Shown: positions 1-30,600 of the stretch, one piece after another
Position numbering within the stretch: position 1 is the first letter of the stretch
How the letters are laid out: each line of letters starts with the position of its first letter
NCBI GenBank assembly: GCA_964640155.1
Contig: CAZXEQ010000008.1
Span: 60,001 to 92,000 of the forward strand
Direction of reading: 5' to 3'
Source: an uncultured bacterium
GTDB lineage: Bacteria; Auribacterota; JACPWU01
Length of the DNA stretch: 32,000 bases
Made by a program: the position numbers and the translations under genes
Notes under the pieces: generated by a model
What the model was told of the DNA's origin: nothing
The model's database searches: none
The model's input: only the letters and a program-made list of their open reading frames with translations

Positions 1-7
1 TCGACGC

Positions 8-9000: not shown

Positions 9001-9370
9001 TTATAAAGTAGCTATTTTAAACGCAACGTCATTGCCTGCTGAAATAGAGCAGGTTATGGTTATTAAACTTAATGCTGACCAACAAAATTCCGACACAATC
9101 TTCAATGAATTAACCAATTTTGCAACCTATATTGCTGATATAGGCAAAAAAGAGGCAAGAGAAGACGGACAAGTTAGCAAAATGTTTTCCATTCTCATAC
9201 AAGCCCTGTATGAGGGAAATCCTCAAGAAGCCCAGTCAATATTAAGCAAAATGTCTTTAGAAGAAATTTTAGTAAAATCAGAAATCTTATTCCCGCCGAT
9301 TAATCAGCATTTTCAAAAAGACTTAGATGCTTTTATACGCGCCAAACGCACCATTGATGCAATGGCGTAA
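8..9370 (+). CDS. Giant (>=3,120 aa) predominantly alpha-helical, K/E/L-rich protein of unknown function; probably 5'-truncated by the window edge
   Basis: Track ORF from ATG 8 to TAA 9368-9370. The same frame is already open at bases 2-7 (CGA CGC), so the real start may lie upstream. The listed N-terminus has no signal peptide. All ORFs overlapping it in other frames are <=103 aa. I recognised no catalytic or family motif by eye. Confidence 0.9.
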   Translation: MLGIPVDKVLKVLNQKAYTQLDQEILEGLLREADETRIGTINETVSSWMRERRLAPDCDALEVERVALASERYAPAEVFLSLTRLDSSSHWERILAKRVVREAFGGSKKYEGLVYLTETMMKKSHQATQAIVIKVIRKMMDEVQIFLKEQKKEKAEEKVLMALDLLIYFLQRSRSYFVPSYLLKEVLLRIKSDPMKDLGPACFEKIAPMIVEMERYLPSAFWMREAVWMNHIELIKAIMRQEQKALLDERVALYERAGLYLSGFLNEIKKLAQEGHLKEALALFDLVFLENDFKEGDFLKEIQKVKSFLEARKRLPDLRMQLLDASKIFKEGLMIKDFSESTVTFEEVLSLYHSSQVLMREAQLDSFEIKLGNRSFIYTPVMLEDRISLLENLIHFENAIVKWDGTQVEHFIGVLKKCFEKTKLSDEERLGFERLYAEYQLIAEIRLQIMQGDLPRAISRISSLQNAAQALPLAQFFYEHLFVHLKQKLTDAVQNSEAVGKALLELDELFAIRLPGPVPASLYADMSLLEERLKSIKKAYKLYQETLELIEREEFEGVEQNAERISRISTIWAKILRAKLVDEKNIFNAKIQERLDEYWKKGEEAFKRVLTVETERKFDKEALQTALENYSLLLKENSKNRSLKIERSKIVLKRNLIQAFLKIDADYASINDTSSLNLQYKKIASILKRIDIILDTSSPYQEVLAEVKLPLTAFRRQISGALGEKSESLKFQTDQRTSRDQFHQAFEFFHMGFTFTDAQKRSEYWNLSRLAFKKVKNDLLFLNLTSIDRRGKLYDDAWLVQMLDFINALIEFEGISEDDKNKRTKLEKMKTLMEASASFDLRDTEIKQIQGLIKRREFWMTFTDLIEQREYARMSEVLKQAEASKELHDAPEIKKARQLHWKLAFKPINDLLDKTETTRVSTKLKVGEEEVEKNLVDLRLERVGELFTEFLLDEFQQNFSPDQHRKYEGLQKRWKGLKEARQIYIRAEEELRKGSFSSVKRSVNKIKRYSEMWASELKGKVLFAEQEKHSEIMETITAADDLFRYALDCERDTDIKLFKESSDLYSSAIAKMQMCHAEVVFPISEILLRAHFAKQVAEVDQQLDEVLSKPISSLEELTTLNQNVLSLLKTREDSKLDKTAGDLVQKEDIQEDIRNKRIWKNLLQRRAQVLWKMSFLEIQKAAFLEIKEDKEKQIQIRQALLVRAEEPLKELKRSKAFTDLAAQINSASSERNETKPLLKPPRAASLEDRLNLMREAKTKGRESLKRKDQTKDPTTIALRLIAALKQLVPVKADDDLLAQQTQRGLVLIQLRVIHQAMINLSLGEVDQKNILEFIFKVLNLTDQVETIGELIAKEEAWKNKNDLSLKEAEMRRFQDETQKKNEALYRSIIEKIMELNQDYSFEVSDQTRINNETSFHRLKEEAESLTKSFVPQEESQTAFQAQIKIRFYLSQITEEISKTRKSILFKEKLTSWRKTLSLIQLFREESFYEKIWDSELLDLHGQIESFFKVHDLLFKHIYQVENMAEALTKLDLAESLFPSNIDRSVLPWSELRKRLDVCKEMKAFYRNSLTAIDGAGKPVDALWVLKVSLGMAKDALSARDYDLVRLGLLEVLSGCLQKGFENFDSLVFEDREKLLLGLTEMVKEKFLDETFLEMIVERTFESISQYINDSQKHLGKSQLNDIRACVHAFQRCIRTLDDLMAMISVSQDEVIVKLQDMKDQVNLFLLIFLTHAQSLGELNNLKSPLERVQKLRVLNENIFGEDIIIPLLKSHEETIQRIVLYYRQQWMQALLHLAITGAQNAEEEDHFLNELTLGIHFLNEGFEEGNALLVRAVQERKMIGNSNLLNPKSDLIQFEELLKIASTYGGVFFQDRLSSLINHALSECLVLLKKGQLDSVETFLKLVDKNRKILTLNEDLLRHVADEVTTFLELRRQINEIKIALKSDKSSTHWMALAGIYQKWLNHAPYDDNIFSDYTNLLKKVVQDFEKGLEAATSLEALHEIMSTFQFNELFSDESEIALENSLKDSDRRKTFLEIKKRFVIIRNQIMANLNGINLDKIQDFEKQLEQFPFLHVLSRVLVPVMYAWTQDCYAESASLQGGTYKEALNKSFEALKSVHSITSLLKKRTRIFISTERSLAEEGAHTLGILLQGLEDAQNPLLEQLGYEVLSERLVLYNKKVSSLPKSHQNESEQEKVIQAYLRAYCESLRIQFEKIENKAINKSQTGENIYQSYEDLLKLEAAFDLLNAYQVRFPEITSVLEILQSDCARLKRGIWLLSLFFQEEFSNLKLKKLSMVDLNDAFRVLEYGFEIQNVFRTEEPVLTELDLAVEWFKYLWSPSLDLQKNSEELKLILKKAISLLARPGPRAKIVVEIINSFLYSQIHFLEYLIHSRNYTEAQRHINFFLNLIPQEDAYRDIRQKLEALLTKAVAPSQEESSPISPDAPHANGADKVLENGSENGIHKPSTGIIPPRDTEVLDQWVRNLPGHWTRDLLIPGLSRPHFLALHGGYIDGGEKPAVTHVKTNQAIARDMVALDAVPIETVEGIGILSKDSDLIRAMQSFLKGAFLNSRTKNALKGVRVVLLPEPQVDEKSGPKPNPKQACIEENDLGSVYAHYGQKGQDPKGQTSSIFFRAELVKRLLALPEKGPQALAALIKLESYRHEYREDPKKVDKRSSAEVVKAARLSRDELRNLVHSLAEVEADILLEEKDNTQAIINAAELLEHPEMAMLDDNTVIGKLRGPLSTVFTRKIADRIRTTEDDRAKRYLMQIQAATEKIHNIQIASESELLISFLKDKLREIPNIQTLGIDLLMGEIIVTLADGKKQSLKLSSQVIQALSLMVGKLAGSVERIVIDIATSEQRGNFLEKAIILLMSPDQKTLTPNERKIIGELTAQRIEIEAVDLIHISQDLGNLARITPDVIKASEYFAQSLDQRKHPILIEAELIKQKLASLTGDDREAFLKHCQKYYAVLRTEKVEGLEEDKTQEHLWKNYDAFIELDPNYKVAILNATSLPAEIEQVMVIKLNADQQNSDTIFNELTNFATYIADIGKKEAREDGQVSKMFSILIQALYEGNPQEAQSILSKMSLEEILVKSEILFPPINQHFQKDLDAFIRAKRTIDAMA
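7289..7420 (+). other. Pro/Ser/Gly/Asn-rich low-complexity linker inside gene 1 (about aa 2428-2471)
   Basis: The peptide APSQEESSPISPDAPHANGADKVLENGSENGIHKPSTGIIPPRD interrupts otherwise helical, K/E/L-rich sequence. It separates an N-terminal region of about 2,430 aa from a compositionally different C-terminal region of about 650 aa. Confidence 0.6.
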
Positions 9371-9487: not shown

Positions 9488-9550
9488 TCCTAAAAAATTT
9501 GTTACTACATACTTTAGTTTAATTTGTTTATCAGGTTCAAAACGGTGAAT

Positions 9551-9557
9551 AAGGGGG
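9551..9557 (+). promoter_or_regulatory. Shine-Dalgarno-like AAGGGGG, 9 nt upstream of TTG 9567
   Basis: A purine-rich AGGGGG lies at canonical spacing from the only start-type codon between the in-frame TGA (9546-9548) and the hydrophobic N-terminal peptide. Confidence 0.5.
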
Positions 9558-9566
9558 CGCACCCGT

Positions 9567-9638
9567 TTGAAGAAATTTATTGCATCTTTATTAAGCATTC
9601 TTCAACTTTTCTGGTCTATTCCAGAAGATTTATTTGCT
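9567..9638 (+). other. Putative Sec signal peptide (M)KKFIASLLSILQLFWSIPEDLFA | QD
   Basis: A basic KK n-region is followed by a hydrophobic core of about 13 residues, then a small-residue site (LFA) before an acidic/polar mature N-terminus. Judged by eye only. Confidence 0.5.
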
Positions 9639-12600
9639 CAGGATTTTCAAGAGCCGTCCAATGCCGTTCCTATTGCTGAAAATCCTTCTTCTGATTCCTT
9701 CATTCCTTTGAAACAAGCTCGAGAAATTCAAGAGCATGAGCAGTATTTGCAAGACAAACAATTTCAAATGCAGGCCTTGCGGTCCAGTCATTCTTTAATT
9801 CGCTCTCCTTTTTCTAAAAATCCCAATCCCTTTATGAATGTGAATGATCCCGTTCAATCTTTTAAATCTCTAGATTTTCAAACTCAAAATATTCATCGAC
9901 AGTTGCGTTCATTGGCAGAGATGGAACTCAGGCGTATTGCGGCCTATATGGAACGTTATGTTCTGGCTTACAATAAAGATAAAAGCATCAAAAAAACCAC
10001 TTACTTTAATGCTGTTCCTATTCGAATTGAAAATGAGCGTTTGGTCGATTCTCACGGGAAGCAGACAATTCGAAACACGAGAAATATGAAGTATAACGAG
10101 AAACGCCAGTTAATTTCTTATGAAAGCGAATCTTTAGATGCTTTAGGTAACACGACAAAGACAACATGGAAAGAAGGCACTTACTATACGAAATCTGATG
10201 AACAACTGAATGCTCGTACAAAAGAAGGTTATGTAAAATCTTATACAGAAATGGTTGAACTTCCAAGCGGGGAAGTCATTACACGTCGGAGAGATAATAT
10301 TCTTTATTATAACAAAAAAGATGAAGAGCTGAATTCGCGTTTTGTTCAAGAACAAATCGCAGGCTACACGGAAACTTATGTTTCTAATCAGGCTCCCGAT
10401 GCACCGCGTCTTACGGTTTGGTCAAATGCAACGTATGTGAAACAGCCCTTTACACCAACTTCTGAGAATCCAGACCCAGCAGGTGGTTATGCAAAGAAGA
10501 AGGCTTTAAAAAATCTTAAAAAAGAGCCAGATATTCTTTTAACTTCTTTTCATGAGGAAACAACGGTACTTGGTTTAACATCTGTTCGAGATATTAACAC
10601 GATTGAATACAACGAGTATGAAGAACAGACATCCTATCATGAGAGAATTGAAAGACTAGGTCTTCTATATAACAACGAATTTCGTGGAGGTCGATATGAT
10701 GAATGGGGGCGACTCATTCAATATAATATTCGAAGCGAAGTAGGTGGAGAAGTCACTATTACAGAACGGTTGGAAACTGAATATACATCAACTGGACTTA
10801 TTTTAAGGTATGTTGAAAAAATAACCTATCCCAATGGAGTAGTTGAGGAAGTTGAATTTATAGAACCTGAATATAATGAGATAGGACAGCTTTTAGGATT
10901 TATACGTATTACCAACACAGAAGAGGGAGAAATTAGGACTACACGTAGTGATATTGAATACAATAGCTTGGGTTTAGAAACATCCTACACGGATACCATT
11001 GAAAGCGAAGGTCTCACAACGATCATTGAGATGAGTGACATTACTTATAATGAAAATGGACTCATTTATAGTTTTTTACAAACTAAAACTGAGATAGGAA
11101 GTTCGCTGGAATGGGGAGAAGTTTTTGACATTGATCGCGTGACTGTCACGGAACGTGTTTACACGCGTTACAACGGTGTAGGTCAAGAAACAGAATATTT
11201 TGAACGCGTGCAAGATCCTTTAGGTTTTACAGAAGAAACGTTGCGATCAGGCATTCTCAGAAATCAAGCGGGTAGAGTGACTGCATATCATGATGTGATT
11301 CATAGAGAAATTGCAGGTGTGATTGACGTACCACTGCGTACTGAGAGTGGAGAATATGTTTATGGTCCGGATGGACAAATTCAAACTCGCCGTGAACAAA
11401 CTGAGCAGGTGATAGAGCTAGAAAGAAATTTTGAAGGACGTTACAACTCTGGCGGAGAGTTGATTTTTAGTCGTGAGACTGAAAGAAATGAAGCTATGCC
11501 TGATTTAACCATTATTCGTACCCGTCAAGGGATGGAGTACACACGAGGTCATTTAACAAACTTCATTGAGATTCTTGAAGAAACAGGACCGGGAATCTAT
11601 CGACGAGCTCAGACCACAAGATCTGGCACTCAAATTGACCGTCGTGGGCGACCTATTCGGTATCAGGAATTTTATCAAAAAGGTGATATTGAAATTTTAA
11701 GAATTCGTGACTCGATTGTCTATTCTAATCGAAATCTTATTTTGAGTTATCGTGAAATAGAGCAGCAAGGTTCTGTTGTAACCATTCGAGATGTTATTCA
11801 AACGCAATATGATTATTTTGAACGCGAAATTTTTTCACGCTATCAGCTTCAAAGAGGAATTTTAAGAGAAGAGCATCTTGTTCGTAAAACTTACAATGCT
11901 TTGCATCAATTAAGAGGATTGGTAGAGGAAATCAGAAGTAATGCAACAGCTCTTTCGAGGGTGATGCGGCAGGGTTATTTTTTCTATAGTATTGCAGGTC
12001 AAATTTTGGGTTATCACAAAGAGGAAGAAGAAGCAGGACAATACCGTTCTTCTACTGGAAGGGAAGTGGTCATTGACCGAGAAACCGTGAGCGACCGAAC
12101 TGAAATTCAATACAATCGCCTCGGACAAGAAATTTTCAGAAAAACGCTTCATCGAGATATATATGGTTTTCAGGAAAATATTGAAGAGAGTAATATTCAA
12201 TATAATATCTCGGGTCAAGAAGCAAGTCGTAATGTTCGAATTGTACGTACGGGCACGGGTGAAGTTTCTGTTCCAGAAACGGATAGCGAAGGGAATTTTC
12301 TTGTGGATGTGAGTGGAAATTTGATTACTCGACTTGAAACCCAAACGCTTCGGGAAACTTTTGAAAAGAGAATTCATTCTCAGATTTATAATATACGCGG
12401 TGAGCTCATTTCAAGCACTGAGGAAATAAGATCTAGCGCAACTCCTGATAAAACACTTATTCGTACTTTCCAAGATGCTTTTTATAATGACAACGGTGAA
12501 CTCACAACTTATCGAGAAATTTTTAGAGAAAGAGGCATCTATCAAGTGTTAGGAATGAGTTATCCTCTCGATTCTGTGAAAGAGATTTTATGGAGCGGAA

Positions 12601-15600
12601 TCGAATATGATGACTTTGGACGAATTTTGACAAGCATGCAGACGATTGTGGAAAATTTGGGAATTGCCATCTCTCGCGTTAGAAGAAATGAACTTTTCAA
12701 CCCCATAGGACTTATCGATCATTACACCGAAACTGAACAAAGAGGGGCGAGCAGCATTAGAACCCGACGACGTATTGATAGTCAATATGATGCATGGGAT
12801 AGGGAAATCAGTAATGTCGAGACTTCTAGCAAATTAGACGAAGCACAACATTTTCAGAATTTCACTGAGTATAATTTCTTGAACCAAATTTATGAAACAC
12901 GTCAAATCATTCAAAGCAATTTAACTCCACTCATTCAAAATATTACACGCACAGGAATGATGTATGGCGGCGTGGCTGGAAATTTTCTGTTAGGCTATCG
13001 TGAAATTGAGAATACTCAAGGATCTTATACCGGAATAGATGGTGTTCTTGTCGCTATTGATCGCACAAAACTGATAGATCGATTAAACACTTCATATAAT
13101 CGTTTAGGACAGGAGATAGAACTTAGTGAGAGGCGACAGCTTCCGAATGGAGTATTAGAGAATTTTACGCGCTTCGGAATTCTCTATAATGAAAAGGGGC
13201 AGGTGATTGCAAGAGATGATGTTTTGCGTAAACGTGCTCAAGCTGTTGTGACTATTCCTACTCAAGATGGCAATGGGGAGGAAACTTCGGTTCTAGAAAC
13301 AAATACCGCCATTTTAGATCAGACAGAACTCAGTCAATGGCGACTAGGGAGTTACAACACGCAAGGTCAACTTGAAAGTTATACAGAGACCATTCAAAGT
13401 AATGCAAATGCTTTATCCCAAACTAGAATTTGGCAAAATGCAAATTATGATGAAGAAGAAAGACTGGTTTCTTATCAAGAAACGCTAAGAGATTATGGGC
13501 AATATATAGATGCCTTGGGTGTGGAACGCCGAATAGATAAAACGATCGTTCAAAATAGAAATCAAATGCGTTATAACACTCAAAATCAATTGATTTCTTA
13601 TGAAGAAGAATTAATGAATGAATATGGAGAAAGAAGTTTGAGGGAGTGGCGAAACGCCACATATGGTCCCACAGGACTCATTCAATCTTATCATGAAGAA
13701 ATTAATCAGAATATTTTAAGTATTTCCTCTTTTGACTCTCGCATGACTCGTCGTGATTGGAGTCAAGCACGGTATGATGCTTTGGATCAACTTATAGGAT
13801 ATAGAGAAGAAATTATAGATCCGTATGGTGTCTTGGAAACACGTATTCGAGAAAACACAACCTATAGCGGTTTGGGGTTTATTGAAAGTTACCGAGATCA
13901 AATGAGTCGTTTTGGAGATACCATTGACCCCTATGGAGTTAGGGTCTTACTTGATACAAGAAAAACTATTAACTGGAATGCTAGGGGCTACAATCGATAT
14001 GGAGAGTTATTGAGATATCACGAAGAAGTGCGTGATCCTGCTTTAGCACAAGTTGTCGTTACAGATCATTATGGGATGACTCGAGATCTATTGGGGCAAA
14101 TTCGTTCTTATCAAGAGAGCATCCGTGCCAATGGAAGTGCTTTAGATGCTTCATCTGGGATAACGCTCAGTCTTAATCTTCTTCAACGACGTACCGTACA
14201 GGTACCTCTTTATAATTTGCTGGGCCAAGCCCTCGAAGGACAAGAATCTGAGATTCAAATGGGAGATGGTTTTAGAACGCAAAGAGAAGTTCAAAAAAAT
14301 CGTATGGTGTATCAAGGTTCAGAGCTTGTTCAATACGAAGAAATCACAACGCGCGACTCTAGTCTTTTAACCCAACACAGAGTTCGAGAGCTGACCCTTA
14401 TTGGTTCAAAAGGACAAGTCACAGGATATAGAGAATACACCCGAGAGTACGGGACGGATTCTCATGGGATAACCTTGGACCGCACATCATTTATTGAACA
14501 ACAAAACATTTTGTATGATCCGTTGGGAAGACTTTTTAGTTATGAAGAAATGATGATGGATCCCTACAGCGTTGAGCATAGAACAGCAAGAACAGAAATG
14601 TATTACGATGATCAAGGCCGTTTGATCAGTCATAGAGAAAAGAGAGAAAGAAGTGATATTCCTGGTCAAGTAAATATCAGAAGATTTTATGGAGCTCAAT
14701 ATAACCCTTTTGCACAACTACTCAGTTATATTGAAGAGGAAGAAGGCTTTGGAACAACTGTTCAAAGAATTCGTACAGATGTGCGTTATGATCGTCAGGG
14801 GAATATCATTCATTATCTTGAAACGATTAATGACAGAGGAGTCCGTACTCAAAACATTTTCAGTAATGCCCGCTACAATGGTCTGAGGCAATTAATGGCT
14901 TATCGTCTTACAAGTGCAAGTCTTGGTCAAACACAAGTATTTGATTTTAGAAATGCTCGATATGACGGCGATCAAAGACTTGTCTATTATGAAGCTATTT
15001 TGGAACCTTATCGAGGGAGTGGGCATATTATTAATATCACATGGAGCAATGCTGTTTATGACAGTTTGGGTCGTCTTTTAAGTTCTCGAGAAGAACGAAC
15101 CAGTGGTTCTTCACTGGAAGTTATTGATACGAGCTCTATTGGTTATGACAGTGAAAATCGAGTGAGTGATTTTACCCGAACAATTCATAAAACAGACTCA
15201 GGCCTAGATTGGACACTTACTCAAGTCAGAAGCAGTATTCTATACGATGGTCGTTCAGATACAGTCATTGCGTATAGAGATGATATGAATGAAAACGGCA
15301 TTTTATGGATGCAAAATTATCAGGTAACAGCTCAAGATTCCTTAAGAAGAGTGACTGACTATCAAAGGCAAACCAATCGTAGTGGAGTGACTCAAACTTT
15401 CACGAGGCAGAACATGCTTTATGATGATGCAGGGGCATTGCTTCAAGGCGCTCTAATTGGTTACACTGATCAGGAGTTAGATAGTCGATTCCCAGGTTTG
15501 GTCGAACAAACAGAGCATCAAACGCTTGGCATTAATAGTATGGGGTTGGAAACAGATTTTCGAGAAGAGACAGCATTAAATGGTGCTCTTTTGAATAGCA

Positions 15601-18600
15601 CTGAAACCCGTGAGCGAAGCGGCATTAGCTATACTGCAGATGGCATGATGGAGTCTTGGCAGGATGTGATAACGATTGGTAGCGAACGAAGAATAGAGCA
15701 AATTTCCAATAGTCAATGGAATGACTTGGGCCTTCTCTTAAATCAGGATCGACAAATTCGTCATACCGCAACAGGGCTGGATGTGACAGAAACGGTTCGG
15801 CTTTCTTTGGGCTATGACCGGCAAGGTCGATTAACAAACCAAACAGAGGTTGTGAGAAACAGCAGCGCGCCTGACATCACAACGACAACAGTAGTAGATA
15901 ATATTATTTATGGAACAAATGAACAAAGATCTGCGTATAGAGAGCGGGTTATAACTGATGGCATTGGAATAGATCCTTGGACAGTTACAGGAACTTATAA
16001 TTCGCTTGTTTACACGGATGGGCTTTTATCTGCTTATACGCGTCAAACAATGGATAGTCGTTCTCCCGATGCATCCCGACAATCCAACTTTAGTTCACTT
16101 CGTTATAGTCCCGATGGACTTTTACTAACATTCTCTCGTGAAGATATTGAACGCTCGCCCACAATGAATGTGACAACAACCGTGGATCGTCTTCAAACTC
16201 AATATGATGCTCGAGGTAGAGAGATTGGCGCTTCCGAAAGAAGTTCCGACTCTGCGCGTTCAGGCCTTGAATTGACAACAACGGTTGCTAGAACCTATAA
16301 CTTAAATGGACAGATTTCTGTACTAACACAAGCAACTGAGGCGAGAGGCAGCGATGGGTATTCACTAACCACGACTGCGACTCGAAATGCTATTATTTAT
16401 AACACGCTCGGACTTATGACATCATGGTTGGATACCTCTACAGAATCTGCACATCCTGTTCTTACTCAAGAACAAGTCAATAACGCTAGATGGAATCATT
16501 TAGGTCAATTAACTTCATACGAAGCTGTCAATCATTCAGCAGGTCCAGGTCTAGATGTGACTGAAACAACTCAAACAACGCTTGGATATAATCGTCAATC
16601 TCAAGTCAACCGAATTGAACAAAGATCGACAAATTCTAGCAGCCCAGATCTCACAACTTCCACGACGCAGTCTAACATCAACTATGGAAGAGATGGCAAT
16701 GTAACAGATTATCGCCAGACGCAACAGTTTTCGGGCGTAGGCTTAACCCCTTGGACGTTAACAACAAACTATGCTTCTTTGAATTATCGCAATGACCAGC
16801 TTCTGTCCTACACAGCGACAACCACAGACTCTCGCTTTTCAGGCCTGCAAAATGTTTTGATGAGAAGTGCTTCAACTTATAATGATAATGGCTTTTTAAA
16901 TACCTTTGTTGAAGAAAGAATGGATTTGGGCGCTGGACTTAATGTCACTACAACAACACAGCGAATGCAAACGACATATAACACTCATGGAGAAGAAGTT
17001 GGTTCTGTGGAAAATATGAGGGCCTCCAATCGCCCAGCATTACAAGTGACTTTAACAAATACAAGAACCTACGCAGCAAATGGAAGAGTGTCTTCTTGGT
17101 CTGAAAGAAGAAATGAAAATGGAGGCCTGGATTATTCTCTAACCAGCACTTCCGTTCGAAGTGCCATCACTTATGATTTAACAGGAAACTTGACAGGATG
17201 GATAGATGTCGAAACTACCAATCGTGATCAAATTGTTTTAACGGAGCGTATTTCTGATGTCAGAACAAATCGCTTGGGACAAATGACGAGAGCTTCAAGT
17301 GAAAGCCAAAGAGCCACAGGTGTTTTATCAGAAACAGATAATATTGAAAGAAGATTTACTTATAGTCCACAAAATTTGATGACAAGTTTTAGCGAAACAA
17401 CAACTTATGATCCTATGCGTACAGCACGTGATGGTTTAGAAAGAACGATTTATACTCTTTCAGGAATGATTCGATCTGCCTCAGGTCTTTTAACATCTTA
17501 TCGTGAAAGTTGGGACCAACAAAACTCAGATCCTCTTCGAAGCACAATTGAAACGGTAAACACTTCTGGCATTACTTATGCGGCAGGACAAGTTAATTCT
17601 TTCGATACTCAATATGCCAACACTCTTAATCCTACGCTTAATTCTCAATATGAATTTTCAAATATTCAAAGAAATTTAATAGGCCAAATCACCTCTTCAG
17701 ATGTCACTGTGACCAATCTTTCTGGGAGATCTTCTTATGAGGAGACTTTGGATTATGATATTCGTGGGCGCATTGAAAGTCGCCTCGAAGTCAATCCTAG
17801 CACTTCAACGATTTTAGAAGGTTGGGATCAAATTCGATATAACGATCAAGGCCAAATCAATAGTTTTGATTATATTGATTCAACAGGGACCACACACAAT
17901 AGTGGTATTGCGTACACAGACCTGAGTTTAACTCCCGATGATAGTATGATACCTCATCCAGAAATTTTATGGCGACATGGGAGTACAGTTATAGGGAATA
18001 GTGAATTGGGGATAGTGACTAGTGCAAAAGAAACGTCATTGCGAGAAGGCGGAGCCGACGAAGCAATCTTATCTCTCCAATCTCACTTAATAAATTCTGA
18101 ACTCTCAACGCGACATGCTGATTTAAATATTTCACAATCCACAATTCACAATCCACTCATCATAAGTATTTTAGACCGTCCTGTGCTGCCAAATGTAATT
18201 CCGCTTCAACGTTTAAGCGGAACTGCTTCGACGGGGGCCCTGGTTTTTAGAGGTACAACAACGCAAATAGAAAGAAGCGGGACAACTTATAATGCTTCTG
18301 GACAAGTCACAGGCTTTGTCGAAAGAACAAGAATTTTTGGGACGATTACCAATCCCGATGGATCAGTTCAGGAAATCCAAATAGAAACTTCTGTGAATCG
18401 AGTGGCCACAGTCTATGACATCTTTGGTCAGGAAATTGGATTTGAGCAGATTGAACGTGATGCCTCAGGAGTTGAAACGCAGGTTATTCGATCGAACATC
18501 ACCCGGAATGAACTGGGAATCATTATCGGTTTCACAGAGACTCGAAAAATTATTTTAGATCCAGATCGTCCTAAGGAAGAAGAAGGTGAACTTGTTGTTA

Positions 18601-21600
18601 CTCAAATCAGAGAAATTCAGTCTTTCGATCGTTTTGGCCGAATCATTGCATTCATTGATCGTATTATCACGGATGGATATTACAACAATCCCTTGAATTA
18701 TGGAACCTCAGTGACAGGTGAACCTAGTAGACTGCGTACCGAGGAGACCACATATCGCACAAATACAGAATATGATGCGTTTGGACGAATCACACGAACT
18801 TCTGAAACCTACGTTTCCAGTGTTGAATCAGCAAAAACGATTACGATCGATAAGGCCTTCGGAGATTTTGATAGTGATGGCTATGCTACACACACCGAAC
18901 AAAAAATGCGCGAACAAGGTCGCGATGAATTTGGAAATGAAATTGATGTAACTCGTGAAATCATTCGAAGCGATATTTTGAGAAATGCATTAGGTTTGGA
19001 AATTTCTTATCATGAAGAAATTTCAGCTCTCATGGCGGGCATGACTAACTTTTTACAACAGCAAATAAGAGAGTACCGTGCTTCTCGGTACAGCATTCAT
19101 GAAGGTCGTGTTTTAGAATATAAAGAAAAAATTCAAGATTTAATTAAAAACTCCACTCAAAAAATCCATAAGCATGACATTGAATATACAGCCAGGGGCA
19201 AAGAAAAGAGCTTTATCACAGATATTACAGAAACATTACAACCGGCGACTGGTGACCGGCGACTGGTGACTACCTTAAAACGAATCGCAGGATCAAATTA
19301 TCAATATAATCTTTTAGGTCAGCTGATCAGTTCGACGCAAATCATTTCTGAACAATTACAGGGTCGTCCCATTAAAGAAACCAAAGTCCAATTTGGTCAA
19401 GCAACTTACAACCGCCTCGGACAATTGCAATCTTATAAAGAAGCAAGCACGCAACATATAGAAACAAGCGATAGCGTAAACACCCAGAAGCCTGGAGCAA
19501 CAATAAAAGATATTAGTCAGATTCAATATTCGAAATTAGGCTTGCAAGTCGCATCAATTGAGAAAGTTTACGAGAGCAATGTATTTCAATTCGAACGTCA
19601 GGTTTTGGATCAACACTATGATGTGGCAGGAAGACTTGTTGAAGATCGTACGGTGAATATACAATCCACAGGCGAGAAAATCGAATCTTCGCGCTCCAAC
19701 TTAAAATACGACAAACATGGGAATCTGACTTCTTATCAAGAAAGCGGAACATCAAACGCTACCGGTTCTTATTCTTTTTCTAGAAATCAGACCTTTAATG
19801 TATTTGGGCAACTTTCAAGCTTTAAAGAAGAGGGGACAAGATTCTCAAGCCCTCCTTATGAGGCTTCGGAAGCAAATATCGTTTATGATGATTTAGGACG
19901 AAAAGAGAGTTATCAACGACTTGAAAAGGATTTGTTTGGAACAAGACAAATCGAAAGAACTTCTACTGAATATGATTCGCTGGGACATGTTCAGTCTTAC
20001 GCTCAAAATACTCAAGAAACACTTACTAACGGCAAGCAATCCCAGATACAGGAAACTCGATCTGAAATGATTCATGATGATTTTAATCGGTTGATTTCTT
20101 CTAAGAATTATACCAAGGGGACGAGCCAAGGAAGGGCACTCGAGCAAACCGTCAGTATGAACGTGAGTAGTTTTGATGAGGTGGGTCGTACGATTGAATA
20201 TAAGGAAATCACTCAAAATCATGTTGAATCTAGAACCATGCAATCGATAGTACAGACTTCGTATAATGAAATGGGACAACTCACTTCACAGACCGAACGT
20301 CTTTATGAAGATGGTTTTCTTCAGCATGACCGCACAACAACTCATCAAGTTTATGATTCTTATGGTCGTGTTGTCTCAGATAGAACCGTTCTATCTTTAG
20401 CATCTGGAGAAATAACTCACTCTGAGCGAACAAAATTAACTTACGATGAGGTCAATAATCTTATTTCGTTTTCAGAAAAAGGATATTCAAACGCAAATGG
20501 GAACTATGAATTTTCTAGAAATCTTATCTATGATTCCATAGGCCAAATTTCACAAACAAACGAGGAAGGCAAGCGATCTTCTAATGGAAGCTATTCGCTT
20601 CTTGAATCAAAAATTGCCTACGATCAATTAGGTCGAAAAATTTCATTTTTATCTGAAGAAAAAGACGTTTATGGAAACCATTTAACAGAGCGCCAATGGA
20701 CAAGTTTTGATTCTAAAGGGCGGACCAATGCTTATCGGCAAACAACAGAAGGAAATTTAAAAAATGGCAAATCCGCTAAAGCTGAAGAAACTCGGGAAGC
20801 AATGACTTATGATAACGCCAATCGTTTAACATATTGGAAAGAGCATACCAAAGACTTAACAGACACGGGCTCTTTTGACCGTACGACTGAAACATATGTT
20901 CAAAGTTTTGATCATGCCGGTCGAAGCTCTCGCTTTGTTCAAAAAATAGACAATCACAGAGAAGGCTTAAAATCAGAAAATATCATTGATCAGTCTTACA
21001 ATGATTTAGGGCAAATCAAAAATAAAAAAGAAGCGGTCTTTTTAGAGGGCTTATTCCAACAGGAAAAAACTTCTTCAAATCAAATTTATGATGAGTCCGG
21101 ACGCATCATCTCTGATGAATCCATAACACGTTTGGCTTCAGGAGAAGTGACGCATGCAAAACGTGAAAACGTAATCTATGATGATGTAAGCAATATGGTA
21201 AGTTTTTCCGAAAGCGGTTCTTCGAATGCAAGTGGAGATTATTCTTTTTCCCGTGAGCAAGAATTTGAAAAAGGTGAGGTGGTTGCTTATCGCGAGAAGG
21301 GAACACGCTCTTCCGATGGTGCTTATACGGCTCAAGAATCTAACATTCAATACGATGAATTAGGTCGAGTAAGTTCTTTCCATCGAATTGAAACAAATTC
21401 AATGGGGACATATATTACACAAAGAACTTCAACTCATTATGATCGTTTGGGACGCATGGATGGTTATGTGCAAGACATTGAAAGCAAATTCCTAAATGGA
21501 CAATGGACCAAAGTCACAGAAACAAAAACAGATATGGTTTATGATGAAATGAATCGTCTTACGAGTTATCAGATTCAAACACAAGGAGCTAATGAAATAA

Positions 21601-24600
21601 GAAATATTGATGAAACAAAAACCGTTACCATTTCACAATTTGACCACGCAGGGCGAGCTTCAGCCCTTAACCAAATCTCTCAAGATCGCATCACTGGCCA
21701 CAAAACAGAAGTGAATATCACTCAAAAGTATAATGCTCAAGGCCAAATTTCTCAAAGTCAGGAAAAGGTATATTTAGACGATGTCTATCAGTATGAAAGA
21801 AATGTCCGACAGCAAACGTATGATGCTCAAGGAAGAGTAAATTTAGAAGTAGGAACTTTGGAGTATCCGAGCGGAGAACGTATTTCCTATCGCAAAGAAA
21901 ATATGCAGTATGACAATTATGGAAATTTAGTTTCTTATTCTGAAAAAGGAAATTCAAATGCTCACGGACAATATTCTTTCACGCGCACACAAAACTTTAA
22001 CGCATTAGGCCAAGTGATTTCTTCTCATGAAGAAGGCACTCGTGCATCAGGTGGTGACTATACAACAGATCAATCAAATGTAGTTTACGATGATTGGGGC
22101 CGTGTCATTGCTTATCATCAAGTTGAGAAGGATGCTACGGGAACACATGTTACAGATCGACTCTCTACGGATTATGATTCTCAAAATCGCGTGATTGGCT
22201 ATCACGAAAAAAGTGAAGATCAACTAGGTAATGGTGTAACAACTCACACAGAAACAGTTGAGAGTGGAATTGCTTATGACCATCTGAATCGTATAACCAG
22301 CCGCAATACACACACATGGGGTAGTAATTCTAAAGGGGACACCTTTGATAGTACGGTTGTTATTTCAGTTCTTGAATTTGATAAGGTGGGACGTTCTATA
22401 AAAACTCATGAAACGGTCACAGATCATAAAGAAGGAAAAACTCAAAGTCATGATATTAGCTATCAATATAACCGCAAAGGTCAATTAAGCGAAAAACGTT
22501 TTACGGATGAAAAAGGCGATGAAATTATTCATAGATACCAATATGACCGCACAGGTGTTCTTGAAACTCAAAAAATGGAACATCCCGACTATATTCTTGT
22601 TTTAGATCGTTTTGGTGACCAGATTGGATATGAAATTGGTTGGCGTGCTTTGGAAAGAATATTAGATTCCCAGGAAGTAGAAGAGGCCTTGCTGGATCAT
22701 GGCTTAGAGGCGAACAAAGTTGAATGGGAAGATAAAAATGATCAGATGCAGCAGGGATTTAGAGGTAGAGGTATGGGCAAGGGGACAAAGTCTCCTGAAG
22801 GTTTTGTTCAATATCCTCCATCGCTCGAATCAGTTGAAGCAGAGATAAGAAATCTCGAAGCAAGACTAGCTGATCTAGAAAGCACAAAATCTCCATGGCA
22901 AGAAGCGGAAAGAAATCTGATCAAAGCCGAGCTTACCTATGCACGGGCTCAAAGAGCCTATTTGGGAGCTCGAACTCCACAAGAAAAACAAAGAGCTCTC
23001 AGGGCCATGGAATTTGCTCACAAAGAAGTGGTAAGAGCTGAAAATGCAAATCAGGGAGGTCGATCAGGATTTAATTCAGGAAGAGTTCAACGTTATAATC
23101 CCCGCCAAATTGATGGACCTGTTCGGCAAGAGGGCGAAACTCAAACTTTAGAGGATGGGTCTAAACAGAAAAATTATATTGCCGAGGGCAAAGGATGGAT
23201 GGGAAACGTGTTTAGCATTACCATTTCTGGACGTCAGGCCTGGATTACGAATGGCCAGGGTGAAAAAGTTGCTGAGCTTCGGGTAGAAGGAAATAAACTC
23301 ATCATTGATAATTTGGTGACGGGACATCAAACAACCATGGAATATGGTCAATACGGCCTTGAAAGTTCAACAGAGCTCAGCAACATTTACGGCTTTGAAG
23401 TTAGAAATGAAAATCATACGTATACTACGGATGCTTCCGGTAGGGTCACAGAGCATCACTATACCCTTCATGATGAAAATGCAATGGGTGTACAAACCTC
23501 TGAAGGTTATAAGGCTACAGGCGGAGGCGTCTTAAATGCTTGGGGGACTACAAAGTTTAATGATCAAGGTCAGGCTGTTTTTCATGAAGAAAGTCGAACA
23601 TTATCAAATGGTAAATGGAATGTGGCATATGATTTCTATCTTCGCATCGAAGGCATTACTTATGACCGTTTGGGACAGCAAGTCTCTTTCCATCGCGAAC
23701 AAAGAGAAGGGGGATTGGGTATTCGAGGCTATAACAGCAATATTACCCGAGAAGGTACAGTCGATGAAACAGGGAAGCTAAATTATTATAAAGAAACAGA
23801 ACATACCACGATGGGGAAAAAGGTCACCATTGACCGGATTCACGAAGCTCGTCCGGAATATGATGGAGACAAAATCATCAATGAACATCGAGAAAAAACA
23901 TATGAAAAGATTGTTGTTCGAAAATCTTGGTGGGAAAAACTCTTTAGTTTTATTCTTCCCATTCTTGCCGTAGTTGCTTTTTTCATCCCAGGCATTAATG
24001 TCATTGCTGCTGCAGGAATTGCTGCTGCATGGAATTTCATCACAGGAATGGCCATGGGCCAAAGTCCTCTGCAAGCTTTCTTAGGTGCTGTGATTAGTTT
24101 TGCCACAAGCATGGTGGCCGCTGGCATCGGAGGTATTATGCAAGGCTTGACCAGTGCTGCCAAAACAGTCGCAAGCAGTGTCTCGAATGCTTTCATGCAG
24201 CAAGTGTCCGGAACGGCTGTAAGAACATTAGTCGCCCGAGTCATTTCGACAGCCATGACCACAGCTTTTGGAGATAGACTGGGCCGATGGGGCTCTTTAA
24301 TTGCTAGCGTTGGTTCTATGTTTGGCTCTAGCTTTTTTGGCAGCGGAAACAGCTTTGCAAGTGCACTTTCGACTTCGAATTTTGATTTTGGACAAATTGC
24401 AAAAGAAGCGGTTCTTACAACGGCAAAGTTTGCTGCTTCAAGTTTTCTTAGTAGTGCTCTTGGCGATTCTATTTGGATTAATTTTGCTGCATCGGCAATG
24501 GGAGCAGTTACAGATTCTATGATTGATGTAATAGGTCAAAACCTAACAGCTTATTTCTCTAAACCTGAAGGGTCTGAATTGACTCGGGATGGATTGATTC

Positions 24601-27600
24601 CTGATGGAGCAAAAAAAGATAAAGAAGATGGCTGGACTGAGCATTATCAGATACGCAACGGAGAGTTTGTTAGAGACGAGCGTGGAAATCCGGTTCCAAT
24701 TGCTCTTACTCCAACCAAGGCTGAAGTGATCAGCGTACAAGAAAAGGGATTGGATGGTTTCATTCATGAGAAAATTACTGGAGCTACATTGATAGATGAA
24801 GCTGGGAATCAAATTACTTGGGATGCTCAAGGGCAAATCACAGCAATTATTCCTGCTGAAAATCTTGCGAATACATCAACACAAAATATTTCGACACCTA
24901 AAGAAGCAATACGTAAAGATGCTGTGGATTTACCTTCCAATGAATCACTGGAATTGGCAATAGATTTACGAGGTATTGACTTAACTTCTGAAACGAATCT
25001 AAAAGTGGAAGACAAAAGTGCATGGGATAAGGCGAAAGATTTAGCTGCGTCGGGTCTATCTTCCATTTATCATCTTCTAATCCCTGAAGCAGGTGCTGCA
25101 AGTATTGAAGTATTGGGTGTTGGTGAACCTGGACATGAAATCTTGACTCAAGCTGCAGCTCAAACAACAGGTTTATTCACGGATGATGAAATTGATATCA
25201 TGATGAGTCATGTTCGAGATAATGATCTTGGCTTTGTTGAAGCAATAGATCCTCCACGATGGAAGTCCTTCTATGCAGGCGCAAGTTTGGCTAAATTAGG
25301 TGAAACCCATTACGGAAACTATCAATTTCTCCATGCGATGAAAGCGGAAGGCGAAAGTGATTTAGCCACAAGAGACAAAATGTTAAATTGGGTTCATAAT
25401 ACGAATATAGAAGTTCTTGATCTGATCAAAGAGGGTGATTGGAATAAAGCATTAGCAAAAGCCAGTTCTGTTATGCATCTCATTCAAGATAGCTATGCTT
25501 CAGGTCATGGAGTGAGAGATTCCGAATCAGGGCAAATCACAGAGTTTTATAATTATCACGTTCAACAAGAAGATTCTTCTTTGGCTGCCATGCACAAAGA
25601 AGGAGACAAAATCTGGACTCTTACAACAACCACAGTACCTGGTGAACCATGGATGTTTGAAAATCAAAGTTTAGCAGAGCCTTTAAATTATAGCCCTCTT
25701 GTCCCTGATGTCACTTTCTCGACTCCTACATTAAAAACTGAATACCAAAAAGCGGTTCAAACAACAGCAAATTATCTGAATTTATTAAAAGAAGGCGCGG
25801 ATCTAAAGAAACTAGACACTTTCTTTGAAAAAACATTTGAAATGAAGCCTGCGACTTTAGATCAAAACCAATGGCAAAATGATCTTTTTGAAGAAATACC
25901 TTTGCTCCCAGAGTTTAACAGTCCCTTATGGGAAGACGTTAGTCCCCGATATGATTTTAATTTACCATCCAATACAAATCTGATTCAGGGTGGGGAGGCT
26001 AGAGGGAATGTTGAATTTATTGAACATGCGGGAAAGAAATATACAAGTGAGAAACAAAGCGTTCATACTCCTTTTTCCGAAAAACCATTTGTTTCTCACA
26101 GTACTGGCCAACATTCATCTATTCAGTCTAATGAGTGGCCTAGTATTTCAGCGATTCAAGCCGAACCGGGTGTAGAGGGTGCAGATGAGAATGGAAGAAT
26201 GCCTCTTACAATTGAATTTCACATGCCAAAAGATTCTCTCATGCAAGAAAATTCTCAAATTTCTAATGCTCCTCAAAACACCTTGTCTAATTATGAAAAA
26301 TTTAAAGTTGGACTTGATCTTGCAGAATTCACACTTCTTCATTTTCTTGTTGGAGAAAAAGCGCCCACCGTTTACAAAGGCTTGGTGGATACCAGAGCAA
26401 AGGTACAAGATTTTGCTTGGAATCAAGCGGGATTAAAAGAGACGACCCAGTTTTTAGCTTTCACAGGTTCTTCTATTCTTCAAGATATCAATACGCTCTA
26501 CGAATTAGCAGATTCTGGTGTTACCAAACTGACAGGGGCTAATATTGATGAGTGGAGCATTGCTGCAATGCAAGCTTCTCAAGGAACCCCCATACCCTTT
26601 GACGATATACTCTCTTATGGAGGAGCTCTGATCTCAAAAGGCTTTCAAGGAGCAGGAACTCTTTCGAAATACTTAAACTCTTTTTCTAGGGCGGAGAAAT
26701 TAGCAGAAGAATCTTATGATCTAACTAAAATAGAAAGAAGAACGATTAATGTATTGAACGACAATGGAACTGTTCGAGAAATAGCTCAGCAATCTTATTC
26801 GTCAGAAGCGCTAAAAGCTTTAGATGAAGTTGGTCAAGGATCTCAAATTAAAAGGGCAGGCAGTTTTCCAAATTCAAATACAACAGATGCTCAATTTTGG
26901 TCACAAGATCACCCTTTGACCAATCCTAATTTTGCGGATGACATTGGTGCAGCAAGTTTTGACTCTTCATCCGTAGATTTTGTGATTGGAGGTAAAGCTA
27001 AAACTGAAGCAAACTTTATTACACGAGAAGCTCCATCTTATGGAAAACATACGGGGGGAAAAGTAGAAATCGTGGCAGATCCCGGTGATATAAAAGCAGA
27101 TTATTTTCATATGCCAGAGAAATCAACTGCAGATTTAGGTATTGATATAAAAATTGATTCTCAAACAGGGAAGGTTTCATATACTGAAGTTGAGAATTTA
27201 GTCACTCCTCGCCTCAACTTAACAACAAATCCTCAAGGAAATAGTAACGGACTCATGGTTTTAATGCCCATGAGCTTGAGTTTGCCTTTTACAGAAAACA
27301 CACAAAGCTTGAAAAATTCCACTGGCTCTCCTCTTAATATATCCCAGAGGACTACTTCGCTGAGAGGGGATGGGGGAGTTATCGGATTAGAAAATAATTC
27401 TAGAAACAATGAAATCTTACCTCCCAATAATGGAGGTGATTCTTGGATTTCTCAGAATGGTACCGATTGGAAGGACTCTATCCGTCAATCGAATTTCCAA
27501 TACGAAAAACAAATTACGAACATGCGCTATGACAAAAGTGGAAAACTTATTGGGGATAGCAGCATTACAAGATTATCTACTGGAGAAATTATTGAATCGA

Positions 27601-30600
27601 CCCGAAGTGATATTGAATATAACGCGCTTGGTCAAATCACTTCTTTCTCCGAAAGTGGAAATTCTAATGCAAGCGGGAGTTATTCTTTTACGCGCACACA
27701 AGAACAAGACATTCTTGGACACATCACCTCTATCAAAGAAAAGGGAACAAGGGCTAATGGTGGAGCATACACATCAGAAGAGAACAATATAACCTATGAT
27801 GACTTAGGAAAAAAACTTACCTATCAAAGAACTGAAACAGATGACATGGGTAAACACATCACCAATAGAACATCAACAAACTATGATGCTCAAGGTCGAG
27901 TGAGTGGATATGAACAAAATACCATCGATGAATTTGCTAATGGAAAACGTGCAACTGGAAAAGAAACTCGTTCCGCTATTCAATATGATGCCCAGAACAG
28001 AATAACCAGCTGGACATCTCACACCAATGGAACAGGGACAGACGGCAAAGTTTTTGATATCACAACACAAACCCAAGTCCAAGTATTTGACTTTGCTGGT
28101 CGAGCTTCTCAATATACTGAAAATATTACAGATCATCGATCTACAGAGTCATTGCGAGCACAGCGAAGCAATCTCATTCATCAAACATACAATTCATTAG
28201 GCCAACTCTCATCTAAAGAAATAAGAGAACAGGGCCAAGACAGCATCCGACAAACCTACAGCTATAACAATGGTGTGTTGAATCAAACACGCGTAGAACA
28301 TCCTGATTACATCATTACATTGGACAAATGGGGCACACAAACATCTATAGAAGAAGGTCCTCGCATTAAAGCAGCTAGAGAGCAAGCACGTAGAGCAGAA
28401 GAGCGGGCAAGAAAAGCACAAAAGGCTGCTTCAAATCTCATGGCCCGATACAAAAAACAAATAGAACAAGAACTACTGAATCAAGCGCTAAAGGCAGTGG
28501 CCATTGATAAGTTCTCAGTAGCAAGTAAATCAATAAATACTGTGTCATTGCGAGGAGCAGCAGCGACGAAGCAATCTCAAACACTTCTTGCTCAATCCCA
28601 AAAATCCATGGCTCAAGCTAAGAGCGCCTTAGCTCAAGCTGAAAACCAAATCAGAAATGCAAAGACACAAAGCGCCAGGGCCCAAGCTGAAGCAGCCAAA
28701 AAGAGCGCTGAAACACAAATAGCTATTGCTCAGAAGAAAATGGAAGAAGCAAAGAAAGCTATGATTAGTGCATCAGGGATAGCGAATCGTGGAAAAGATT
28801 TGTCATTGCGAGGAGCGCTAGCGACGAAGCAATCTCTAGACAGAGCATTAGCTTCTTCTAGGTCTATGTCATCCTCGAAAGTTTCAGTCGGGGATCCATT
28901 CTCAAAAATAGATATCAGTAAATTCAAAATTATATTCAAAGGCAACACAGCTCAAATCAAAGATGCCAATGGCAATGTCTTAGCAGAGGCCAAAACCCAA
29001 GGGAAAACAGTTAAAATTAGCAATAATGTCACAGGCTCTAAAGTAGACATGAGCTATGGAAAATTTGGATTAGCAAGCCTCAAAGAAGTAAACAGCCTAG
29101 GTAAAGAAGTTAGAACTGAAAGCTATAACTACAAGACAGATCGAACAGGAAAAGTCCAAGAACTCAATTATTTAATCAAAGACACAGAGCCCACATCTAT
29201 TCAAACATCTCAAGGCGTTAAATCTGTCATAAGTAGAAAGGCTGTCTACGAAGCCAGTGGCACCATCAAACACGATGGCAAAGGCAGAGTAACTTCAAGT
29301 GAAGAGAATAAAACCTTAAAATCTGACAAAAAGACAATCTATAGCTTCCATGAAGCCCTTACAGGGGTTCAATATGACAGACTCAACCAAATGGTTTCAT
29401 TCCAGAAGCAAACCTCAGAGAAGGGCTTAGGCATCAAGAAATACTCTACAACCATTACAAGAACAGGCGAAGTTGATAGCTCTGGAAAACTCTCTCATTA
29501 CATTGAGAACGAAAGAACCAAACAAGGCAAAGTCAAAATCTCTCGCACATTCGAGGCAACGCCCACATATCAAGGCGATACACTTATATCTGAAAACAGA
29601 ATCATGACCCATGAAAAGATCAAACAGAGCAGTGGGATCTTCCAAAGAATAGTTGGAATTGTTTTACCCATAGCCTTAGGCCTAATCCTTGCCCCTGTCA
29701 CAGCAGGAATCAGTACAGCCTTAAGTGCAAGCATTGGCTCAGTAGGATCGCAAATGGTAGCCCATGGAGTCACAGGCTTCATGAGCAACATGGTTACATC
29801 TATTGCCATGGGAGCTAAGCCTAATGAAGCATTAAAGGGAGCACTTCTTACAGGAGGCATAGCAGGTATAGGAGCAGGAGCTAACATCTTTGGAAGCAAA
29901 ATCTTTGGACTAAGCGTACAAACAGCCAAACAATCTCTTGAGTCCAGCGTAACAAGACAAATCATCACCCGCTCCATCATGAGTGCAGCAGGAGAAAAAT
30001 TAGGACCTGTGGGCTCCGCAGTGCTAGGCGGAGCATTGTCAGGCGTCATGACAGGTGATCCGACACAAATAGCACTTGGTACCATTAAAGGAGCAGCTTC
30101 AGGCTTCATAGGTCAGGCATTAGGCAGTTCCACAGGAGCCCAGCTTGCCAATGCAGCTATTGGAGGCTTTACAGACGCAGCCATTGATCGAATTGGACAA
30201 GAGATTAAAACAATTGCGTATAACGTAAAGGCCCGAGACGCATTGCCGAATAGTGCTCAAGCTTACAAAGGCCAAGATGGCCGAATCAAATGGGCGATAC
30301 AGGACGAAGAGAATGGAAGAAATACTATTTATCAATATAATAGCCAAACCAACCAATTTGAAAATCAATATACCAACGTTAGAAATAGTGAAGTACTCGG
30401 GACTGCATATCTTGCAGGAGCCAATGGAATAGCCTTCATCCCAACACTAGAAGCTAAAGGATCTGTTACACACAACAATGGCATCACTACCTATTACGAT
30501 AAACAAGCTAACTTCATAGAATCAAGACCTGATAATCAATATGCCATCAGAGATACACAAGGAAGACAAATAGGAACTCAACTGCCACTATCAATGTTTA

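Follow-up and report, generated by a model that had tools for sequence, protein, structure and literature searches.

The closest described relatives of the element treated here are the repetitive extragenic palindromic (REP) sequences with a CGTC tag, which the relevant sections of a published survey divide into the families CGTC-1 to CGTC-4 (Di Nocera, De Gregorio & Rocco 2013, BMC Genomics 14:522, PMC3733652). According to these sections, the repeats start with the tag CGTC, TGTC or CCTC and form a stem of 8-9 bp, whose first pairs are nearly always A-T and T-A, closed by a loop of 4-5 nt that is variable in some families. They end in a CCA-like tail, occur mostly as one kind of inverted dimer, are sited downstream of genes, are known from five phyla, and have no dedicated transposase. 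Family CGTC-1 comprises the Neisseria dRS3 repeat and RPE-6, one of the Rickettsia palindromic elements (RPEs), and CGTC-4 corresponds to RPE-4. Additional file 3 of the survey contains many intragenic copies that are read in frame, for example as SFPRKRES, VIPAKAGI, DSRFRGND and VIAGLDPAI; several intragenic copies reside in uvrA, uvrB, uvrC and dnaE2, and mRNA-stabilising roles have been proposed for REPs (PMC3733652). Here, we describe four copies of a GTC-tagged hairpin within one giant gene of an uncultured bacterium (Auribacterota, JACPWU01), in a stretch of 32,000 nucleotides, hereafter the window (GenBank assembly GCA_964640155.1, contig CAZXEQ010000008.1, positions 60,001 to 92,000 of the forward strand). 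The hairpin is probably a widespread CGTC-tagged REP-type repeat that was acquired in sense orientation inside the giant gene, where it is tolerated and translated in frame.

A scan of the window for the exact arms GTCATTGCGAG and CGAAGCAATCT, separated by a spacer of 5-13 nt, returns exactly four paired copies with 0 mismatches, all of them on the + strand (Table 1). This agrees with an earlier note on the same DNA, which had placed copies at 18035, 28148, 28544 and 28802 and nowhere else in the window. Measured from GTC to ATCT, copies 1 to 4 span 35, 27, 34 and 34 nt, which replaces the lengths of 28 and 35 bp given in that note, and the cores between the arms comprise 13, 5, 12 and 12 nt, respectively. 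The arms are identical in all four copies at 22 of 22 positions, the 11 nt of the right arm being invariant, and copy 4 matches copy 3 at 33 of 36 positions when one flanking base is counted on each side. With one mismatch at most, the left arm has five matches in the window versus 0.43 expected by chance, a number that 0 of 100 shuffles reach. A generic pattern consisting of GTC, a hairpin with an AT-opened stem, and C likewise detects only the four copies on both strands, against a mean of 0.67 and a maximum of 3 in shuffled sequences. The possibility, raised earlier, that the occurrence of the motif merely matches chance for the local composition is excluded by these controls. A search of the window for decayed copies found none beyond chance, half-sites with two mismatches being at the chance level.

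Table 1. Features of the window referred to in the text; element lengths are counted from GTC to ATCT.
Feature	Position	Strand	Description
Copy 1	18035..18069	+	(C)GTC-ATTGC-GA-G-AA-GGC-GGA-GCC-GA-C-GAA-GCAAT-CT, 35 nt; read as SLREGGADEAIL; unique linker of the giant open reading frame
Copy 2	28148..28174	+	Short form, GTC-ATTGC-GA-GC-ACA-GC-GAA-GCAAT-CT, 27 nt; read as SLRAQRSNL; super-repeat unit 5
Copy 3	28544..28577	+	Long form, tandem GA..GA around GC stem, 34 nt; read as SLRGAAATKQS; inside 27-aa patch
Copy 4	28802..28835	+	Long form, 34 nt; read as SLRGALATKQS; inside ~22-aa patch
Segment 5' of copy 1	17996..18031	+	36 nt; matches the segment 5' of copy 4 at 28/36 positions (78%) without gaps and in one shared frame
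Segment 5' of copy 4	28763..28798	+	36 nt; homologous to 17996-18031
Site empty in the window, filled in P0001	29223..29249	+	TCT GTC ATA AGT AGA AAG GCT GTC TAC (SVISRKAVY)
Host gene	9549..32000	+	Open frame of >=7484 codons, running past the window end; contains all four copies
Second giant frame	2-9367	+	>=3122 codons; cut at the window start

Translation of the host frame confirms that every copy joins it as TCA-TTG-CGA (S-L-R), with TCA on a codon boundary. The single codon phase claimed for the copies is true of the left arm only; all three frames are used to read the right arm, which yields DEAI, RSN or KQS. The giant open reading frame (ORF) contains four other SLR tripeptides, encoded by AGTTTGAGG, TCCTTAAGA, TCACTTCGT and TCGCTGAGA, and the probability of TCA-TTG-CGA given SLR is 0.0068 under the codon usage of the gene itself. 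The G+C content of the elements is 0.52-0.57 versus 0.40 for the coding sequence. The constraint acts on the DNA and not on the peptide, and because of the three frames of the right arm, the codon identity of SLR and the G+C content of the elements, a conserved peptide motif is ruled out as the cause.

The exact pattern was searched in genomes, with one genome per species, and in viral contigs. It matches at least 120 genome loci, with more than 15 phyla among the matches listed, and at least 120 viral contigs, so that the wide distribution previously suggested is borne out at the DNA level. The groups represented in the listed matches are Alpha-, Gamma- and Deltaproteobacteria, Bacteroidota, Chloroflexota, Cyanobacteria, Melainabacteria, Patescibacteria, Planctomycetota, Zixibacteria, Omnitrophota, Latescibacterota, Armatimonadota, Gemmatimonadota, Ignavibacteriota, Spirochaetota, Bacillota and Campylobacterota. 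The anatomy of the family was drawn from 185 copies in 120 genome loci among the listed matches, to which the counts below refer. The copies follow the plan (C/T)GTC - ATTGC - GA - G - variable stem-loop - C - GAA - GCAAT - C, that is, an outer helix of 5 bp (ATTGC/GCAAT) followed by an internal loop with GA opposite GAA, which is closed by a G-C pair. The base preceding GTC is C in 118 copies, T in 59, A in 6 and G in 2, a pyrimidine in 177/185. The sequence AATC is followed by CAG in 74/185 copies, equivalent to a C-CA tail, and by TCx in about 45. The core is between 3 and more than 40 nt long, and the main size classes are 26 nt and 32-34 nt.

The apical hairpin varies from copy to copy; in many it is entered via a tandem GA...GA (GAGC-GAA-GCGA), and in others it forms a perfect stem (CCGCC-AAC-GGCGG). 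Its helix covaries, as 4/4 variable pairs change on both sides in 16 distinct copies of 32 nt, a result matched by 0/500 shuffles. A sister type, ATTCT...AGAAT, keeps the outer helix via two compensating changes. The copies of the window fit this plan, one of them being a short form with an ACA loop and the other three long forms whose apical stem is GC or GGC; the four apical loops, ACA, GGA, AGCA and GCTA, have 3-4 nt, and the tags with the preceding base read CGTC, AGTC, TGTC and TGTC. The GA-rich loops prompted us to consider a K-turn or a hammerhead-like core, but on inspection the strand lengths are unsuitable and a third stem is missing.

Two thirds of the copies are arranged in inverted dimers. 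Pairs in the order '+ then -', with the tails facing each other, number 63, against 6 in the order '- then +' and 6 in the same orientation, and the gaps are mostly 24-32 nt. Both in genomes and in phages, the copies lie mostly between genes, often right after a stop codon; in phage contigs, the hairpin is found in sense orientation between the stop codon and the next ribosome-binding site. Single copies in lower-GC loci occur 25 times after a sense stop versus 13 times in antisense, and 11 times inside sense ORFs versus 5 antisense, a preference of about 2:1 for the sense side that rests on crude ORF calls. Three viral contigs (L136, L157 and L124) contain 3-6 copies each in a single orientation, mostly after a sense-strand stop and before the next ribosome-binding site, and a C/T-rich tract precedes these copies. 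Tandem arrays were also observed, one in a viral contig, where four copies follow each other every 33 nt (L167:2695-2818), and one with periods of ~50 nt and some truncated left arms in a metagenome-assembled genome (MAG) of Chloroflexus (L007:1290-1870).

Clustering of the ORFs of the 120 listed loci revealed no linked gene, as only generic families recur (ABC ATPases, short-chain dehydrogenases/reductases, histidine kinases, EF-G); as a test for a linked transposase this is weak, since a single autonomous copy per genome would escape it. Scanned at the gathering threshold, neither the window nor 18 loci show an Rfam family that overlaps the motif, and at E up to 10 only chance-level hits appear. 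A scan of the encoded peptides against NCBIfam matched no family, and literature searches by sequence or peptide strings found no report of the motif.

The features shared with the CGTC-tagged REPs are the 5' CGTC or TGTC tag and the AT opening of the stem, together with the dimer arrangement, the site downstream of genes, the occurrence in several phyla and the lack of an adjacent transposase in the sampled loci; the apical loop, which is short in the window copies, and the C-CA tail, present in many copies of the family, agree in part. Both also have copies that lie in frame inside genes now and then, notably in UvrA and other repair genes. On the basis of this architecture, the motif would fit as a further sequence type of the CGTC-tagged REP superfamily. 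Its range differs, with more than 15 phyla plus viral contigs among the listed matches as compared with the five phyla reported, and the motif peptides SLRAKRSN, VIASEAKQS and DCFASLAMT are not in the Additional file 3 list, as far as the sections of the survey cited here extend (PMC3733652). The CGTC-1 repeats with variable loops that the survey describes from Bradyrhizobium may be of the present type. The parallel with the palindromic elements of Rickettsia, which had been suggested before, is closer than was supposed, as RPE-4 and RPE-6 fall in the same CGTC-tagged superfamily according to those sections (PMC3733652). Like the motif, RPE-4 and RPE-6 are short palindromic repeats that lie in frame in coding genes of an intracellular-type bacterium and are translated. 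Their stems are of the ATTCCCGC and ATTCCGTGG types, which give VIPAKAGI, SFPRKRES and VIPWLDHGI, whereas the peptides and stems of the window are different. In Rickettsia, moreover, RPE copies occur in both orientations and over many housekeeping genes, while here four copies are found in one gene and one orientation; RPE-1 is much longer (>100 bp).

Other repeats are less similar. Neisseria dRS3 (ATTCCC-N8-GGGAAT, family CGTC-1) has the same GTCATT...AATC frame, and its copies are clustered and believed to favour recombination and to act as sites of integration; by contrast with the motif, dRS3 has another stem, is intergenic, resides in the mosaic arrays known as NIMEs, and is specific to its genus. 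The GTAG REPs and REPINs, which are mobilised by RAYT (TnpA-REP) transposases, resemble the motif in that they form imperfect hairpins 20-40 nt long, have a tag of four unpaired nucleotides and are arranged in inverted doublets, and they are thought to move via single-stranded hairpin intermediates. Here, however, the tag is (C/T)GTC, no RAYT or Y1 transposase gene lies beside the 120 sampled loci, and the frame is identical across phyla, whereas GTAG stems are species-specific. Bacterial MITEs, or miniature inverted-repeat transposable elements, such as the Coxiella QMITEs, Correia and RUP, are likewise non-autonomous, can land in genes, and add peptide segments. They measure 70-300 bp and possess terminal inverted repeats of the insertion-sequence type as well as target-site duplications, in contrast to the 27-35 nt of the present copies, which have neither feature; no target-site duplication was found in the flanks of the four copies or in filled and empty phage alleles. 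Of the designation REP/MITE-like that had been proposed, the REP part is supported by the tag, the AT-opened stem and the dimers, and the MITE part does not apply.

Comparison with paralogous and homologous sequences addresses the origin of the copies. The host protein contains super-repeats of ~245 aa, and the unit alignment shows that, as previously noticed, unit 5 alone has copy 2 (ESLRAQRSNL), with four paralogous units lacking it and being 4 codons shorter. Only two homologues, P0001 and P0002, were retrieved among 5.8 billion proteins; for the region of copies 3 and 4, a profile search adds none, and a scan of JGI metagenomes yielded no further homologues of 28.2-29.7 kb. For the region of copy 1 at 18035, neither a homologue nor an internal paralogue was found. 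P0001 is 78% identical over the aligned part and has other residues at sites 3 and 4, with no intact copies there, but carries its own copy, SVIASGAKQSLY (with VIASGAKQS), where the window reads SVISRKAVY. At this site, positions 29225-29230 of the window already read TGTCAT, that is, the tag and the first stem bases. P0002, from a Chlamydiae MAG, is 48% identical, lacks copies 3 and 4, and displays the sister type GTCATTCTGAGCGAAGCGAAGAATC at a third site; its contig (L121) contains 1 copy in 10 kb. As the only homologue with a named source, P0002 would suggest an environmental chlamydia as the host of the gene. The three related genes thus have copies at six different places, all in sense orientation.

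Because the paralogous units and both homologues are devoid of intact copies at the sites of the window while carrying copies of their own elsewhere, the copies are, as judged from these alignments, acquired and not ancestral, in agreement with the earlier note. That note had further assumed that copies 3 and 4 bracket an extra length that makes coiled coil B longer than coil A. Their distance of 258 bp is correct, but the intervening 258 bp are conserved in both homologues, and the coils, taken from HPDY to the next module, are nearly equal (A, 214 aa; B, 212 aa), so that the two copies do not bracket added sequence.

In-frame tolerance of this sequence type is not peculiar to the window. In the UvrA gene of an uncultured gammaproteobacterium (L107:1761-4490, - strand), the dimer VIASKAKQSHSTGSANNGIATSPLAPRND is located in frame between the ATPase modules, and in a fusion of a TrwB/HerA-type ATPase with a NUDIX domain (L027) a single in-frame copy occupies a proline-rich linker. 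The same UvrA gene shows ATTCT-type copies at its annotated 5' end, and its dimer is in line with the excess of REPs that has been published for uvr genes.

We propose that a widespread non-autonomous hairpin repeat supplied all four motifs, and that single copies in sense orientation were acquired in weakly constrained linker and coiled-coil segments of the giant repeat protein. The primary acquisition was probably a hairpin-dependent process with the enzyme supplied in trans, and the spread within the gene may have proceeded partly by the copying of longer segments, as about 75 nt are common to copies 1 and 4, and copy 3 is nearly the same as copy 4. The repeats would then persist as 9-12 extra or replaced translated residues, as is the case for RPE-4 and RPE-6 in Rickettsia. 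In sense orientation all frames of the element are free of stops, and the short peptides encoded are hydrophilic (S, L, R, A, K, Q, E), as befits linkers and coiled coils; the copies are presumed to persist for these reasons. The antisense orientation has one frame with TGA, and the other two frames are Cys-containing or hydrophobic; this difference can account for the 6:0 orientation bias. Most likely, the copies have no adaptive role for the protein.

Several observations weigh against this interpretation. The copies of the window are singletons in a family of mostly dimers, and their 3' tails are C-TT or C-TC rather than CCA. The predicted hairpins are weak, with -7.8 to -9.7 kcal/mol on the sense strand and z values of -1.3 to +0.1 relative to shuffles. 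Instead of the continuous 8-9 bp stem of the CGTC-tagged REPs, the motif has 5 perfect pairs, a purine-rich internal loop (GA/GAA) and a variable apical hairpin, and in the cited sections of the survey the ATTGCGAG...CGAAGCAAT type is not among the Additional file 3 peptides (PMC3733652). The copy count for the host organism comprises the 4 copies of the 32-kb window only. In addition, no site of the window has a clean filled/empty pair at the DNA level, P0001 being compared as a protein, and the net changes in length are small: +4 codons for copy 2 versus the four paralogous units, +3 codons for the copy of P0001 versus the window, and 0 at sites 3 and 4 versus P0001. The copy of P0002 also gives a net change of 0 versus the window. 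Since simple insertion predicts 9-12 extra codons, as against the 0 to +4 observed, the alleles are not clean insertions; fast turnover of insertions and deletions in linkers could yield the same picture.

The structure of the alleles was analyzed further. At sites 3 and 4, the window and P0001 have near-identical flanks and then unalignable patches of equal length (27 and ~22 aa), which begin ~14 codons upstream of the hairpin and end at the hairpin. A frameshift was considered as the cause of the unalignable patches of P0001, but inspection of the sequence showed that the alternative frames of the window DNA both reach stops at once. Directly upstream of copies 1 and 4, two 36-nt segments are homologous (Table 1), with a score that 0/500 shuffles reach, while the remaining flanks are unrelated, which points to a module of about 75 nt shared, by sequence, between the two copies. 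In a group of phages, one filled allele (L124:4355-4388) can be compared with five empty ones (L122, L183, L157, L239 and L210); it contains the 34-nt hairpin plus 12-16 extra nt on the 5' side, and lacks 4-8 nt of the empty allele. At the same gene junction, two further contigs (L226 and L172) carry unrelated AT-rich insertions of 113 and 157 nt, which marks the junction as an insertion hot spot. Taken together, these alignments suggest that the transferred unit may exceed the hairpin in size, and that sequence copied from a different site, by segmental duplication, gene conversion or template switching, could play a part.

An extension of this idea regards the repeats as recombination joints or portable cassettes, in which patches of ~75-81 nt ending in the hairpin overwrite resident sequence in a length-neutral manner and diversify the linkers of a polymorphic surface or toxin-like protein, resembling the cassette exchange proposed around Neisseria dRS3. 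It draws on the equal length of the two most divergent patches between the window and P0001, which have near-identical flanks and end at the hairpin, on the 28/36 nt shared directly 5' of copies 1 and 4, on the extra 5' nucleotides of the filled phage allele and the 4-8 nt of the empty allele that it lacks, and on the core of P0001, which is near-identical to the window up to a different C-terminus. The family, however, consists of three members only, with the key homologue P0001 known as a protein, and the sequence of linkers and coiled coils turns over fast, so that compensating insertions and deletions could mimic patches. Moreover, the UvrA dimer of L107 is essentially additive, with +29 aa and ~2 fewer resident residues as compared with E. 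coli UvrA, and the window encodes no recombinase. We consider such a role unlikely, and equally unlikely the associated mechanism, according to which the hairpin would mark the 3' end of a portable patch of ~50-80 nt that is copied over resident DNA by templated, roughly length-neutral replacement and not by cut-and-paste. If true, patch replacement could explain the identical 21-nt frame across phyla and phages without a dedicated transposase, and would make the repeats a general device for rewriting the linkers of large surface or toxin-like proteins.

A function of the hairpins in the mRNA of more than 22 kb, as an exonuclease barrier or as a processing or pause site kept by selection on the transcript, is quite improbable. 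The sense orientation of all copies, the sense-side excess of single copies in lower-GC loci (25 vs 13 after the stop and 11 vs 5 inside ORFs), the position of phage copies between the stop codon and the next ribosome-binding site, the lack of decay in the arms, and the mRNA-stabilising roles proposed for REPs in the cited sections (PMC3733652) speak for it. Yet the hairpins are no stabler than shuffled sequences, translating ribosomes would unwind them, and the homologues do without them at these sites; the orientation bias can equally be explained by the antisense orientation, with its stop codon and its Cys-containing or hydrophobic peptides. An origin of the motif as ancestral sequence coding for a functional peptide (SLR...KQS), or its recurrence by chance, can practically be dismissed: the left arm is always read as S-L-R and KQSL near site 4 is also present in both homologues, but the right arm is read in three frames, the identity of the SLR codons is far above expectation, the identical 21-nt frame is found in non-coding DNA of unrelated phyla and phages, and shuffle controls exclude chance recurrence.

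The interpretation as a tolerated, translated REP-type repeat has several implications. Translated in-frame palindromic repeats are a known phenomenon; the motif would be a distinct sequence type, in a new host lineage and a remarkable host gene. The locus is a clear further example, outside Rickettsia, of REP-type repeats that are translated, and it lies in one of the largest bacterial genes. The 21-nt frame of the ATTGCGAG...CGAAGCAAT type is identical in phage contigs and across more than 15 phyla, a range far beyond the five phyla reported for CGTC repeats. Gene callers and protein databases will keep yielding spurious small 'proteins' from it (SLRAKRSN, VIASEAKQS, DCFASLAMT and similar), and alignments of real proteins will hold short foreign patches. 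The equal-length patches and the extra 5' sequence provide hints only on how the repeats spread.

Two adjacent giant open frames fill the window, and the one that hosts the repeats, of at least 7484 codons, runs on through all four copies. The window encodes neither a recombinase nor a Y1 transposase. The host protein matches no Pfam family; besides the super-repeats, which contain YD-like dipeptides, it comprises a hydrophobic stretch rich in Gly and Ala and two segments of coiled coil. The N-terminus of P0001 (1493 aa) resembles a signal peptide, and between HPDYIITLD and the hydrophobic stretch the protein is nearly the same as that of the window (window 28300-32000). Beyond this part its C-terminal domain is a different one, with a GxSxG-like HSMGA motif, a change that recalls the alternative C-terminal cassettes of polymorphic toxins. 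On the contig of P0002, a helix-turn-helix regulator, a DnaG-like primase/Toprim protein and two tyrosine recombinase genes are located directly upstream (L121:1095-7059), and from this gene content the P0002 copy of the gene seems to ride an integrative or plasmid-like element.

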